Origin: Limisphaerales bacterium
GTDB taxonomy: Bacteria > Verrucomicrobiota > Verrucomicrobiia > Limisphaerales > JADLHS01
NCBI GenBank assembly: GCA_044225555.1
Contig: JBGAIM010000006.1
Span: 200,018 to 264,017 of the forward strand
DNA length: 64,000 nucleotides
Direction of reading: 5' to 3'
Under the pieces are notes generated by a model. The model searched no databases. It worked only from the letters and a program-made list of their open reading frames with translations, and was not told where the DNA came from. The translations under genes and the position numbers were made by a program. Positions 16,809 to 31,561 of this stretch are shown here, one piece after another (the stretch's first letter is position 1; every line of letters begins with the position of its first letter).

Positions 16809-17285
16809 ATGCGATTGCTTAAAATCATTCTGGCGTCCGCTTTGTTGGTGGCTGTGCCGACAGTGCTTGTGCAGGCTGCAACGGGCGATGTGGCTGCCGT
16901 GGAACAGACCGCGCAGGCGGTTGTGACGGGAGCCGAACATGCAGCCGAGGCGGCAGCTCACGATGTCGAACATGCGGCGGCACGGGCAGAGCACAGTGAA
17001 GGTCTTCCCGCGGCGGCTCCGAGAATTAAGGTCGGCCCGTTGGAGGTGACGAACTCAATGATCCTCACCTGGTGCATCGCCCTTTTCCTGATTGTGTTTG
17101 CCCAGGTCGCCACCCGGAACATCAAGGCCGTACCGCAAGGCGCGCAGAATTTCTGGGAATGGCTGGTCGAGGCGCTCTACGGTTTCCTGGAGGGCATCAT
17201 CGGGCCCGATCTGGTCAAAAAGACCTTCTGGTTTTTCGCGACGGTGTTCATCTTCATTTTGTTCACCAATTGGCGATGGCGATGA
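16809..17285 (+). CDS. atpB: F0F1 ATP synthase subunit a, N-terminal part (signal-like, His/Glu-rich extension plus TM1-TM2); reading frame ends prematurely
   Basis: PQGAQNFWEWLVE...FWFFATVFIFILFTNW matches the first half of subunit a. The frame then reads RWR-stop at 17283-17285. Confidence 0.75.
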   Translation: MRLLKIILASALLVAVPTVLVQAATGDVAAVEQTAQAVVTGAEHAAEAAAHDVEHAAARAEHSEGLPAAAPRIKVGPLEVTNSMILTWCIALFLIVFAQVATRNIKAVPQGAQNFWEWLVEALYGFLEGIIGPDLVKKTFWFFATVFIFILFTNWRWR

Positions 17286-17683
17286 TCTTCTTCGTCTGCT
17301 GGACGATCTGGGCGTTGCAGGCCAATGGGCCGGGCGGATTCATCCTGCATTTGTTTGGACCCAAGGGCGACACAACGGGGCTCTTGAAGATGTTGATGAT
17401 TCTGGTGTTTCTCCTGGTGGGCGTTTTGGAAGTGGTGTCCATCGTATTCCGTCCGGTGTCACTCAGCTTCCGGCTCTACGGCAACATTTTTGCCGGTGAG
17501 AACATGCTCGAATCCATGGCCATCATGGGTGGTCCGGCGTTTGGCTGGCTGCTCGCCTTGCCATTCTATGCGATGGAGCTTTTGGTTGGTTTGGTGCAGG
17601 CGCTGGTGTTCATGTTGTTGACGTCCGTGTTCACCCTGTTGATTTGTCAGCACGAAGAGGGACACGAGCACGCGCATCACTAA
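17282..17683 (+). CDS. atpB: F0F1 ATP synthase subunit a, C-terminal part (TM3-TM5 with the essential Arg), in a different frame
   Basis: (LAMA)MIFFVCWTIWAL...FRPVSLSFRLYGNIFAGE...LVQALVFMLLT is the conserved C-terminal half of subunit a. The ATG at 17282 overlaps the TGA of the N-terminal part; ATG 17276 and TTG 17270 are alternative starts. Confidence 0.7.
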   Translation: MIFFVCWTIWALQANGPGGFILHLFGPKGDTTGLLKMLMILVFLLVGVLEVVSIVFRPVSLSFRLYGNIFAGENMLESMAIMGGPAFGWLLALPFYAMELLVGLVQALVFMLLTSVFTLLICQHEEGHEHAHH

Positions 17684-17745: not shown

Positions 17746-17934
17746 ATGACTGGTAGCATTCACGTCGGTCTGGCTGCGCTCGGTGCGGCCATCGGTGTCG
17801 GTCTCATTGGCATGAAGGCTTCGGAAGCCGTCGGGCGCAATCCCGGCGCGTCCACGAAGATCCTGGTTCAGGCCATTCTGAGCACCGCGTTCGCCGAAGG
17901 TATCGTGTTCTTCGCCATTTTCTTGGTGAAGTAA
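17746..17934 (+). CDS. atpE: F0F1 ATP synthase subunit c
   Basis: 62-aa hairpin protein with Gly-rich helix 1 (LGAAIGVGLIG), loop RNPG and a carboxylate in helix 2 (AFAEGIVFF). Confidence 0.85.
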   Translation: MTGSIHVGLAALGAAIGVGLIGMKASEAVGRNPGASTKILVQAILSTAFAEGIVFFAIFLVK

Positions 17935-17990
17935 GGATTCCGGGCGCGGCGGCGCAAGTCGCCGCGCCTTCCGACAACCAATAGATTTTT

Positions 17991-18539
17991 ATGGAACACT
18001 CAGTTTTCTTTGCCGCCAGTGACTTGGTTGAGCTCGCCAAAAAGACGGGCGAGACGTTCGGCTTTAGCTGGTCGCTGTTCATTTCGCAGTGCATCAGCTT
18101 TGGCATCGTTTGCTTTGCGCTGCATCGCTGGGCGTACAAACCAATCTTGAAGGTCCTCGAAGATCGCCGCGAAAAAATCGCCGAGAGCCTGGCCAACGCC
18201 GATAAGATCAAGGCGGAACTGGCCAACGCGCAGTCCAAAGCGCAGGAGATTCTCTCGGCGGCCAATGTGCACGGAAACAAGCTGATCGAGGAAGCGCGCG
18301 TGTCGGCGGCGAAAGTTTTGGAAGTGGAATCGCAGAAGGCGATTGCCACCGCCAATGACATCGTGACCAAGGCGCGTCAGGCCAGCGAAGCGGAACTGGC
18401 CCGCATGAAGATGGAATTGCGCAAGGAAGTCGGTCGGCTTGTCGTCGCCACCAGCGCGAAGGTCACCGGCAACATCCTGACCCCGGACCAGCAGAGCCGG
18501 CTCGCGGAAGACACGGCGAAGCAGTTGGCGAGCAACTAA
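17991..18539 (+). CDS. atpF: F0F1 ATP synthase subunit b
   Basis: N-terminal TM helix followed by a long charged helix (KPILKVLEDRREKIAESLANADKIKAEL...). Position in the operon supports the call. Confidence 0.85.
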   Translation: MEHSVFFAASDLVELAKKTGETFGFSWSLFISQCISFGIVCFALHRWAYKPILKVLEDRREKIAESLANADKIKAELANAQSKAQEILSAANVHGNKLIEEARVSAAKVLEVESQKAIATANDIVTKARQASEAELARMKMELRKEVGRLVVATSAKVTGNILTPDQQSRLAEDTAKQLASN

Positions 18540-18931
18540 TGAAGATTTCCAAACAAGCCCGGCGCGACGGCAAGGCGCTGTTCACCAGTTGCCGGGTGAG
18601 TGGCGTGCTGGATGAGAATCGCGTACGGCAGACCGTTAACGCGGTTATTGCGCAGAAGCCGCGCGGTTACGTGGGGATTCTTTCCCACTTTCAAAGATTG
18701 GTGAAGCTGGACCTCGAACGGCGCACCGCCGTGGTGGAGAGCGCCGCGCCTGTGCCGGAAGCGCTGCAGCAGTCGGTGAAGGCGAATCTCGCGCAACGTT
18801 ACGGCCCGGGTTTGAATGTGAGCTTCACCGTGAATCCGGCGTTGATCGGCGGGATGCGCGTGAAGGTGGGCAGTGATGTTTTTGACGGCAGTGTGCGGGC
18901 GCGTTTGAACGAGCTCGCGGAGAGCATGTGA
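18539..18931 (+). CDS. atpH: F0F1 ATP synthase subunit delta (short, 130 aa)
   Basis: OSCP-like C-terminal part (AVVESAAPV...NPALIGGMRVKVGSDVFDGSVRARL). TAATG overlap with atpF. Confidence 0.75.
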   Translation: MKISKQARRDGKALFTSCRVSGVLDENRVRQTVNAVIAQKPRGYVGILSHFQRLVKLDLERRTAVVESAAPVPEALQQSVKANLAQRYGPGLNVSFTVNPALIGGMRVKVGSDVFDGSVRARLNELAESM

Positions 18932-18964
18932 TTTTGGAAACGAAGAACGGAACGATAATTTGAT

Positions 18965-20539
18965 ATGAGCAACCTCCTCCAGGAAATTGAAGCCCAGATC
19001 GCCGGCGTGAAAACGCAGGTGAACAAGCAGAACGTCGGCGTCGTCCGCGAATGCTCCGACGGCGTGGCCAAGATCGAGGGCCTCACCGACGCGATGGCCA
19101 ACGAGATGTTGGACTTCGGCGGCGGTGTGATCGGCCTTGCGCTCAACCTCGAAGAAACCGAAGTCGGTGCGATCATCCTTGGCGACTACCTCAGCATCCA
19201 TGAAGGGTCGGAGGTAAAAACGACGGGCAAGCTGCTCTCCGTGCCGGTGGGTAAAGGTTTGCTGGGTCGCGTCGTGGATTGTCTGGGCCGTCCGGTGGAT
19301 GGCAAAGGGGCGATCAAAGAGGACGCGTTCTATCCGGTGGAGAAAATCGCTCCCGGCATCATCAAGCGCCGCTCTGTCAGCCAGCCGGTGCAGACGGGCA
19401 TCATGGCGATTGACGCAATGATTCCGATTGGCCGCGGTCAGCGCGAGTTGATCATTGGCGACCGTTCGACGGGCAAGACCACGATTGGCGTGGACACAAT
19501 GATCAATCAGGCGCGCATCAACAAAGTGGGCCGCGCATCCGGTGACAAGAGCTTTCGTCCCGTATTCAACATCTACGTGGCCATCGGCCAGAAGCAATCG
19601 AACGTGGCGCGCGTGATCGCCGAACTCGAAAAAGCCGGCGCGCTGGAAGATACCATTGTTGTGGTCGCCTCCGCTTCCGATTCCGCGGCCAACCAGTACC
19701 TCGCGCCATTTGCTGGCGCGTCCATGGGCGAATGGTTCCTCGATAACGGCATGGATGCCTTGATCATCTACGACGATCTCTCGAAGCAGGCCACGGCTTA
19801 TCGCCAGGTTTCGCTCGTGCTGAAGCGCCCGTCGGGTCGCGAGGCGTATCCGGGTGACGTGTTTTATCTGCACAGCCGCTTGTTGGAACGCTCGGCGCGG
19901 GTCGGCGAGAAATACGGCAACGGCTCGCTCACGGCGTTGCCCATCATCGAAACGCAGGCGGGTGACGTTTCGGCCTACATTCCGACGAACGTGATTTCGA
20001 TCACGGACGGCCAGATTTATCTGGAAACGGATTTGTTCTATCAAGGCGTTCGTCCCGCCGTCTCCGTCGGTCTCTCGGTGAGCCGGGTCGGGTCGGCGGC
20101 GCAGATCAAGGCGATGAAACAGGTGGCCGGTCGTATCAAGGGCGACCTCGCGCAGTTCCGCGAGCTGGCGGCGTTTGCGCAGTTCGGTTCGGACCTCGAC
20201 GCCAAGACGCAGGCGATTCTCGAGCGCGGCAAGCGCGTGGTGGAGATTTTCAAGCAGCCGCAGTTCAATCCGATTCCCGTCGAAATCCAGGCGGCGGTGC
20301 TCTGGGCGGTGCAGAACAACTTTGTGGACGACGTGGCCGTGGAGAATGTGAAAGACTTTCAGGGCAAGCTCACGGATTTCCTGACTACGCGGAAAGCCGA
20401 GCTGTTGACCAAGATTCGCAATGAAAAGGCGATCAGCGAAGCGCTTGCCGGCGAACTGAAGACCGCAGTCACCGAGTTCAAGCAGACTTACACGGTGGCG
20501 AAGCCCCAGGCGGCCGCACCGGCCGGGAAGGCCGCTTAA
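18965..20539 (+). CDS. atpA: F0F1 ATP synthase subunit alpha
   Basis: Walker A GDRSTGKT. Also [42 protein letters not shown]. Confidence 0.97.
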
Positions 20540-20561
20540 CGCAACCGCGACTTAAGTTTTC

Positions 20562-21440
20562 ATGCCCAGCACACGCGACATCCGACGCCGTATCCGCTCC
20601 GTCAAGAACACGGCGCAAATCACGAAGGCCATGCAAATGGTGGCCTCGTCGAAGATGCGCAAAGCGCAGCTCGCGGCCACGGCGGGACGGCCTTACGCCG
20701 GGCTGATGAACAACATGCTGGCGCACGTCACCGGACACACGGGCGACTTCAGCCATCCGTTGATGGAAAAACGCGAGGGCAGCAAGCGGGCCGTGGTGCT
20801 GATTACCTCCGACAAGGGACTCTGCGGCGCGCTCAACTCGAACATCACGCGCGAGGCCGCCAAGTTCGACAAAGACACGGTCGTCTTCGTCTGTGCCGGC
20901 AAGAAGGGCGCGCAGTTCATTTCGCGCACCAAGCGCAAGCTGGTCGCCGAGTTTACCTACAAGGATTCGCCGCTCTTTTCCGAGGCGCGGGCGATTTCCA
21001 AGTTCGTTCAGGAAATGTTCCTGAGCGGCGAGGTGGATCACGTGGATGTGCTCTACACCAATTTCATCACCACGCTGAATCAGAAGGCCGAAGTGCAGCC
21101 GTTGCTTCCGATTGGCGAAATCAAAGGCGTGCAGAGCAGCATCCAGGGCGGGGAAGTCTCCACGGTGTTGGAAAAGTCGGAAATGGAATATCTGTTCGAG
21201 CCGGGCGCCGACGGCGTGCTCAGCGCTTTGCTCCCGCACTACCTTAATTTCCAGGTCTTCCAATTTCTGCTCGAAGCCAAGGCCTCCGAGCATAGCTCGC
21301 GCATGGTGGCGATGAAGAACGCGACCGACAACGCGAAGCAGCTCATCAAAGACCTCACGCTCGAATACAACAAACTGCGGCAGGCGAACATCACGAAGGA
21401 ACTGTTGGAAATTACCACCGCCCAGATGGCGTTGGGTTGA
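20562..21440 (+). CDS. atpG: F0F1 ATP synthase subunit gamma
   Basis: IRRRIRSVKNTAQITKAMQMVASSKMRKAQ N-terminus and NKLRQANITKELLEI C-terminus. Confidence 0.95.
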   Translation: MPSTRDIRRRIRSVKNTAQITKAMQMVASSKMRKAQLAATAGRPYAGLMNNMLAHVTGHTGDFSHPLMEKREGSKRAVVLITSDKGLCGALNSNITREAAKFDKDTVVFVCAGKKGAQFISRTKRKLVAEFTYKDSPLFSEARAISKFVQEMFLSGEVDHVDVLYTNFITTLNQKAEVQPLLPIGEIKGVQSSIQGGEVSTVLEKSEMEYLFEPGADGVLSALLPHYLNFQVFQFLLEAKASEHSSRMVAMKNATDNAKQLIKDLTLEYNKLRQANITKELLEITTAQMALG

Positions 21441-21443
21441 TAG

Positions 21444-22955
<1,512 letters not shown>

Positions 22956-22981
22956 AGCAGGTTCTTCAGGCACCGAAGCAA

Positions 22982-23389
22982 ATGGCCACGCTCAAACTGG
23001 AAATCGTTACGCCGGAATCCAAGGTTTACTCCGAGGACGTGGACATGGTCACGCTGCCGGGGGTCGAAGGCGAGATGGGCATCTTCCCGATGCACGTCCC
23101 GTTGATGACGCAACTCGCCGCGGGCGAAGTGACCGCGCGCAAGGACGGCCAGGATTATTTTCTCGCCGTCGGCGATGGCTTTGTGGAAATCACCGGCGAA
23201 CGCGTTTCGGTGCTGACGGACATGGCGATCAAGGCGGAGAACATTGACGAAGGCAAGGCCGAGGATGCCCGCAAGCGTGCTGAAGCCCGCCTGGCCGAGA
23301 AGATTGACGACGAGGAGGCTGCGCGCGTGAATGCGGCTTTGGCTCAATCGCTAGCTCAACTCAAGGTCAAGCGCCGGCAGCTCAAGTAG
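22982..23389 (+). CDS. atpC: F0F1 ATP synthase subunit epsilon
   Basis: LKLEIVTPE...VTLPGVEGEMGIFPMHVPLMT pattern and position in the operon. Confidence 0.9.
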   Translation: MATLKLEIVTPESKVYSEDVDMVTLPGVEGEMGIFPMHVPLMTQLAAGEVTARKDGQDYFLAVGDGFVEITGERVSVLTDMAIKAENIDEGKAEDARKRAEARLAEKIDDEEAARVNAALAQSLAQLKVKRRQLK

Positions 23390-29830: not shown

Positions 29831-31561
29831 ATGAAAACCAATGCTGTCGCTTCGCTCAAAGTCAATCGTCCTGTCAACCGTCTGGTCGGTGATATGCCCA
29901 AAGTAGGCATCCGCCCCACCATTGATGGCCGGCTCGGCGGCGTCCGCGAATCCCTAGAAAAAACCACGATGAACATGGCGAAGAACGTCGCCAAGCTCAT
30001 CGAATCCACGTTGCGCCACTCCAACGGGCTGTCGGTCGAGTGTGTCATCGCCGATTCGTGCATCGGAGGCGTGGCGGAGGCAGCGGCTACCGCGGAGAAG
30101 TTTCGCAAGGAAGGCGTGGGCGTTTCCCTCACCGTGACGCCGTGCTGGTGCTACGGCTCGGAGACGATGGACATGGATGCGTCCATCCCGAAGGCTTACG
30201 GTCGTGATGTGCAGGACATCGGTTCGACGAAGATCCCCGTCGATGTGCGGGAGAAGATTCTCGGCTTTATCAAAGCTGGTCTCGCTGTCGCCACGATGCG
30301 CGGCAAGAGTTACCTGTCGGTCGGCGGTGTTTCGATGGGTATTGCGGGTTCGATCGTGAATCAGGATTTGTTTGAGGACACGTTCGGGATGCGCGTCGAG
30401 TGCGTGGACATGACGGAACTTGTCCGTCGCATTGAGGAAAAGATTTATGACGAGGCGGAATTCAAACGCGCGCTGGCGTGGGTGAAGAAGAATTGCCGCG
30501 AAGGCAAGGACTACAACAGCAATCCGCACAGCCGCAAGCGCAAGGACTGGGAGTGGGAGTTCGTGGTGAAGTCCGCGATGATCGTCCGCGACCTGATGCT
30601 TGGTAATCCGCGCCTCAAACGACTCGGCTTTGGCGAAGAGGCGCTGGGTCACAACGCGATTCTCTCCGGCTTCCAAGGCCAGCGTCATTGGACGGATCAT
30701 TATCCAAACGGCGATTTTCTCGAAGCGATGCTCAGTTCATCCTTCGATTGGAACGGCATCCGCGAGCCGATCCTGGTCGCCACGGAAAACGACGCGCTGA
30801 ACGGTGTGTGCATGTTGCTCGGGCATCTGCTCACCAACACGGCGCAGATTTTTGCCGACGTGCGGACGTATTGGAGTCCCGAAGCGGTGCAACGCGTCAC
30901 CGGCCACGCGCTGACCGGCGCGGCCGCTCCAGGGCTGTTGCACCTGATCAACTCCGGCGCCGCAGCGCTGGATGGTTGCGGGGAACAGAAGCGCAACGGT
31001 GAGGCGGTGATGAAGCCATTCTGGGAAATCACGCCGAAGGAGGCGCAAGCTTGCTTGAATGCGACGACCTGGCCGCCCGCGATTTATGAATACTTCCGCG
31101 GCGGCGGTTTCTCCTCCGCTTATGGCACGCGTGCCACGATGCCCACCACGATGTTCCGCATCAACATGGTCAAGGGCCTGGGGCCGGCGCTGCAGATTGC
31201 GGAAGGGCACTTCCTCGATCTGCCCAAGGAAATCTATTCCGTGCTCGAAGAACGCACGAATCCGACCTGGCCGTCGCATTGGTTTGTCCCGACGCTGACC
31301 GGCCAGGGCGTGTTCCGCGATGTCTATTCGGTCATGAACGCCTGGGGCGCGAACCACGGCACGATCAGCTACGGCCACATCGGCGCGGAACTCATCACGC
31401 TCGCGTCGATGCTGCGCATTCCGGTTTACATGCACAACGTGGCGGAGGAAAAAGTCTTCCGCCCAAGCGCGTGGACGGCGTTCGGGACAGCGGATCTGGA
31501 AGGCGCGGATTTCCGGGCTTGCGCGAACTTCGGTCCGCTTTACGGCAAAACCTCCCGTTAA
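29831..31561 (+). CDS. fucI: L-fucose isomerase (with an apparent in-frame internal deletion)
   Basis: Collinear with canonical FucI: [66 protein letters not shown]-like, RIPVYMHNV. Confidence 0.9.

Follow-up and report, generated by a model that had tools for sequence, protein, structure and literature searches.

In the window, by which we mean the whole 64,000-nt stretch of DNA analysed here, the gene for subunit a of the F-type ATP synthase (atpB) is broken into two reading frames, and this raises the question of whether the organism makes the subunit in two pieces, has lost it through a real deletion, or carries a normal gene that was damaged only in the assembled sequence. The first-pass annotation had described a first frame ending in FIFILFTNW-RWR and a TGA at 17283-17285, with the remainder, starting LAMAMIFFVCW, in another frame from about 17270, and the open reading frames bear this out (Table 1). 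The 5′ ORF ends in ...FIFILFTNWRWR, where RWR represents three out-of-frame codons, and the remainder (LAMAMIFFVCW...FRLYGNIFAGE...HEEGHEHAHH) runs from 17270 to a stop at 17681-17683, with TTG 17270, ATG 17276 and ATG 17282 as candidate starts within its frame. The last of these (17282-17284) overlaps the TGA of the 5′ ORF as ATGA.

Table 1. Features of the atp operon and lesions found in the same genome. Plain positions refer to the window; positions preceded by a C number refer to contigs of the window's genome.
Feature	Position	Strand	Remarks
atpB 5′ piece	16809..17285	+	158 aa; signal-like N-terminus, His/Glu-rich extension, first subunit a helices
Deletion junction in atpB	17272..17274 (~17,273)	+	121-nt deletion relative to the closest relative; between ...CACCAATTG(G) and (G)CGATGGCGATGATC...
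atpB 3′ piece	17270..17683	+	137 codons from TTG 17270; FRLYGNIFAGE helices (essential Arg), His-rich C-terminus
atpE (subunit c)	17747..17934	+	Intact; PF00137 on L035 ortholog
atpF (subunit b)	17991..18539	+	Intact
atpH (delta/OSCP)	18539..18931	+	Intact; PF00213 on ortholog
atpA (alpha)	18965..20539	+	Intact
atpG (gamma)	20562..21440	+	Intact
atpD (beta)	21456..22955	+	Intact
atpC (epsilon)	22982..23389	+	Intact
fucI (29831..31561)	30190..30200 (~30,196)	+	96 nt (32 codons) absent, in frame
gltX	C11 ~85,770		88-nt deletion
gatB	C6 ~94,590		71-nt deletion
mpl	C3 ~267,720		76-nt deletion
Protoporphyrinogen oxidase	C31 ~77,040		50-nt deletion
MBL-fold hydrolase	C26 ~276,400		73-nt deletion
CheA-like hybrid kinase	C28 ~49,472		~155-nt deletion; HLLRNAVDHG N-box removed
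trpA	C27 ~307,980		44-nt deletion; YxxSxxGVTG motif removed
FAD-halogenase-like gene	C15 ~117,790		~53-nt deletion
Glycosidase-like gene (711 aa)	C22 ~348,884		Frameshift by 8-nt tandem duplication (AAAGCGGT twice)

Both pieces belong to subunit a by profile, as each exceeds the PF00119 family threshold of 33.9 bits: the 5′ piece matches profile positions 1-74 (E 1.7e-11, 44.8 bits) and the 3′ piece positions 92-215 (E 1.8e-22, 80.7 bits). Profile positions ~75-91 have no counterpart in either piece, and, as assembled, no continuous polypeptide covers the whole profile with its GLxPG ... ADxNxT hairpin turn. The 3′ piece is 88% identical to a congener's atpB and, when aligned to solved structures, retains the RLYGN motif with the Arg of the c-ring-facing helix (FRLYGNIFAGE). 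Apart from the deletion, neither half has a defect. Because the halves are otherwise undamaged and the catalytic Arg motif has been kept, the lesion is without evolutionary age. In the AtpB proteins of this clade, a signal-like N-terminus leads into an extension rich in Ala, Glu and His (window 16809-17030), and the C-terminus is His-rich, HEEGHEHAHH (window 17650-17683). As both are conserved in the intact proteins of congeners, they are real features of the clade rather than artefacts.

Comparison with relatives indicates what is missing between the two pieces. The closest sequence, L035 on an NCBI metagenome contig (protein P0002), has 92% DNA identity over the operon and is near-identical around the break; it aligns with a single gap of exactly 121 columns, and the lesion is thus, as had been stated at the outset, not a 1-nt indel. 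In the DNA search, the match was interrupted at query position ~465 (window ~17273) in 30 out of 30 relatives, each of which carries ~118-133 extra nt at that breakpoint. Likewise, atpB is one ORF in 11 out of 11 congener or same-order loci, in which 37-44 residues separate ...NW from LAMAM.... We also searched a database of 5.8 billion proteins with the read-through of both pieces as query. Both flanking motifs occur in 119 of the best 120 homologues, and all 119 contain the block, which is 39 residues long in 115 and 44 in four. Furthermore, the block is spanned by a single matching segment in 80 out of 80 species-representative loci, all from Verrucomicrobiota MAGs of the Limisphaerales/Pedosphaera type. 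Alignment with the atpB of the closest relatives, which had been recommended as a check, therefore places the block in one continuous ORF in every gene examined and reveals none with a short loop. The original estimate of ~25-35 absent residues was right that a conserved loop is gone but slightly low, the closest relatives having 39. In the relatives, the block has the consensus AGLxPGVGTxGWG...RPLLRGVNADLNMT, and it corresponds in the alignment with solved structures to the conserved NWFGLLPGVGSIG ... PLFRAPAADLNFT region. Among the lost residues are the end of one helix (GLxPGVG) and the start of the next (ADLNMT), which are conserved even in the solved structures.

The leading idea of the first-pass annotation was a genuinely two-piece subunit a. 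According to this idea, a 158-aa N-terminal piece and a ~133-aa C-terminal piece, the latter translated by termination-reinitiation at ATG 17282 (or 17276) across the ATGA overlap, would together form a functional stator that lacks the loop. It is in keeping with this that the break is situated in the region of the loop between two helices, that both pieces keep strong Pfam matches, and that the ATG overlaps the stop in what had been recognized as the classic coupling arrangement. The overlap does exist; however, its ATGATC encodes the Met-Ile that LAMAMIFF had ancestrally, and intact relatives have it too: there, GCG ATG GCG ATG ATC encodes A-M-A-M-I. The overlap arises automatically because the frame has shifted, and we reject it as an evolved coupling signal since intact genes have the same ancestral sequence within their coding region. 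Moreover, the sequence preceding the candidate starts (TTGTTCACCAATTGGCG) contains no visible purine-rich Shine-Dalgarno element, and the split is not clean, as 39 conserved residues are gone. A split or loop-less gene occurs in 0 of the ~200 relatives examined, and the atpB lesion is one among many in the assembly, with the same type of lesion found elsewhere. On each point where a natural split could have left its mark, we found the reverse: the relatives are unsplit, conserved residues have been lost, and the second piece has no evolved start signal. A literature search for a precedent for split subunit a returned nothing relevant. If the idea were true, a rotary ATP synthase would be shown to tolerate both cutting and shortening of its stator at the hairpin turn between two membrane helices; on the evidence above it is unsupported, and we consider a functional two-piece subunit exceedingly improbable.

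A second explanation is a genuine deletion: atpB could have been inactivated by a recent loss of 121 nt, blunt or mediated by microhomology, either in the lineage that was sequenced or in those molecules that went into the assembly. The sole F-type ATP synthase would then lack a functional proton channel, and the cell would have to rely on substrate-level phosphorylation. The remaining genes of the operon, atpE-F-H-A-G-D-C (17747-23389), are undamaged, in agreement with the initial description. The proposed check for another atp operon elsewhere yielded no second F- or V-type enzyme in the genome, which has a single PF00119 locus and no other alpha/beta pair; because this F-type operon is the only one, a true loss would matter physiologically. 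A lone ATPase of the ATP-synt_ab family (PF00006) lies at C5:121,704-123,167; its open frame of ~516 aa shares 29-33% identity with AtpA/AtpD. By homology, no partner subunit was found nearby. Rather than a second ATP synthase, this is probably an ATPase of FliI/T3SS type or similar.

In favor of a real deletion, the lesion is present in the sequence as given, and mutants of Escherichia coli in atp genes are viable on fermentable substrates. In addition, a microhomology of 1-4 nt is possible at the junction. The TTGG deletion suggested initially, with its 4 nt, requires TTG as the ancestral Leu codon and is possible only in that case; the closest relative, L035, has TTC at the Leu position, which leaves 1 nt. 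On the other hand, neither atpB nor the operon shows decay elsewhere, the junction was unseen in the public metagenome and genome collections that were scanned, and the same type of lesion is found in the only GluRS gene, gatB, trpA and other genes. Were the deletion real, this would be an aerobic-type Verrucomicrobium whose ATP synthase has no functional proton channel; the evidence does not favor this, and we regard it as unlikely.

The recurrence of the lesion across the assembly can be best seen in a survey of frame breaks, in which ORFs from ~1.2 Mb (two contigs) of a near-complete congener, G016, served as tblastn probes against the genome of the window, G000. The survey comprised 717 dominant probe ORFs with matches, with the reciprocal search as control. 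Gene boundaries and antisense ORFs produced noise in either direction of the initial, less stringent search; the cases reported here were verified by DNA and protein alignment after such noise had been removed. In G000, eight more genes proved to be frameshifted by deletions of 44-155 nt, and a glycosidase-like gene by an 8-nt tandem duplication; in G016 the ORFs are continuous (Table 1). Within the window, fucI, which lies 13 kb from atpB, also has a lesion of this class: congener G017 and a paralog within G000 (C27:11482-12294) have 96 extra nt at query position 396/397. Including atpB and fucI, there are at least ten deletions of 44-155 nt in G000 versus none in the control congener. For the same genes, the reciprocal search revealed one small frameshift in G016 and no mid-size deletion. 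No single-nucleotide frameshift was found in G000 among the 717 dominant probe ORFs with matches.

At the DNA level, blocks of 44-146 nt are absent 16 times in G000 versus six times in G016, and their length is not a multiple of three in 10 out of 16 and two out of six cases, respectively. The in-frame cases in the direction of the congener fall in low-complexity loops. The deletion junctions are blunt, the lengths disregard the reading frame within a narrow size range, and the affected genes have no other decay. Such frame-blind block lengths in G000 are as expected if the lesions were never acted on by selection. The deleted blocks have no GC, folding or G-run property in common. A hairpin, G-quadruplex or GC extreme as a common cause was accordingly rejected: the atpB block alone has five G-runs, and folding energies are ordinary.

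Several candidates were discarded during verification, four as intergenic (C22:105378, C22:125674, C9:118919 and C8:164627) and two as non-coding (C11:45337 and C11:47016); an apparent lesion in the GlnRS gene was an alignment artefact, the gene being intact. We also noted a 7-nt length difference between G000 and G016 at C22 ~98,992, seen only via an antisense-looking ORF. Other MAGs of the genus contain occasional simple frameshifts, in a peptidase-like gene (G016 C2:349,539) and in gatB (G010:C505:15,935-15,944), none of which is a mid-size deletion.

Some of the affected genes are indispensable. gltX encodes the sole GluRS of this genome, its only paralogs being a 309-aa GluQRS-like protein and the intact GlnRS, and it is continuous in 15 out of 15 congeners having the gene on one contig. 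gatB is continuous in 17 congeners with the gene on one contig, the exception being the simple frameshift in G010. Among the congeners compared, only G000 has these two genes as adjacent out-of-frame halves with missing residues. A cell in which GluRS, GatB, TrpA, protoporphyrinogen oxidase and the ATP synthase channel are all broken is not credible. Since a cell without its only GluRS could not live, the lesions are best read as errors of assembly or consensus.

Because the same type of lesion in gltX, gatB and trpA cannot be real in every case, a shared technical cause is the simpler explanation. The lesion type is recurrent in this assembly, is absent from the control congener, and has hit indispensable single-copy genes. 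Judging from this pattern, we suggest that the gap and frameshift in atpB very probably reflect an error in the assembly or consensus step, and that in the organism itself atpB is most likely normal and in one piece. An assembly error had been listed among the alternatives in the first-pass annotation, and it is the one that best explains a lesion type recurring in at least nine other genes, essential single-copy genes among them.

How such an error could have come about is a matter of speculation. One possible source would be mid-size indels inherited from a long-read draft and too large for short-read polishing; another would be scaffold gaps joined without filler. The genome contains no N, and its single rRNA operon lies mid-contig on a 249-kb contig, a position that points to a long-read assembly or an isolate. 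A homopolymer census of the genome counted one 29-nt and one 16-nt single-base run. There are also points against an assembly error. Mid-size deletions are not the commonest type of assembly error, and the absence of 1-nt frameshifts would be unusual for a raw long-read assembly, in that it needs effective polishing of small indels. Nevertheless, errors of tens to hundreds of bp have been reported in most long-read bacterial assemblies (PMC8442456), and the fragmentation of genes by assembly errors is a recognized problem (PMC12007338). Exact-protein records and the metagenome and genome contig collections yielded no independent assembly of this species. A degenerate junction pattern was absent from metagenome and genome contigs, collections that possibly do not include the window's own genome, and a pattern for the left flank was absent from metagenome contigs.

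The main value of these findings lies in quality control, as a warning on the genome record, and their biological interest is low. The genome is a species representative and 96.6% complete, yet ~1-1.5% of the probed genes have spurious-looking internal deletions. Claims of split genes, missing motifs or pseudogenes in this genome, fucI included, should be regarded as suspect pending a check of the reads.

The locus can finally be set against known systems. In common with canonical AtpB (PF00119; solved structures 9itj_T, 8j0s_a and 5t4o_K), both pieces match the family, FRLYGNIFAGE has been retained, and the genes follow the standard order of the canonical F-type operon, atpB-E-F-H-A-G-D-C. 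Unlike in canonical AtpB, the block NW-[xGLxPGVGTxGWG...RPLLRGVNADLNMT]-LAMAM is absent here and the frame is shifted; a further departure, in this case of the clade, is the signal-like, His/Glu-rich N-terminal extension and the His-rich C-terminus that the relatives add. The lesion resembles true pseudogenes formed by recent deletion in having one disabling deletion in a gene that is otherwise conserved and free of secondary decay. However, true pseudogenes spare indispensable single-copy genes, whereas here gltX and others were struck by deletions of the same size class. Assembly errors, as commonly described, are 1-2 nt homopolymer indels (PMC12007338), and in this respect the present case differs, with deletions of 44-155 nt and no 1-nt frameshift among the ~717 probed ORFs. 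What it nevertheless shares with gene-fragmenting assembly errors (Trycycler paper, PMC8442456; Kastor paper, PMC12007338) is that genes intact in relatives appear frameshifted, with truncated ORFs; as with such errors, the lesions are confined to a single genome and take no account of reading frame or gene essentiality.
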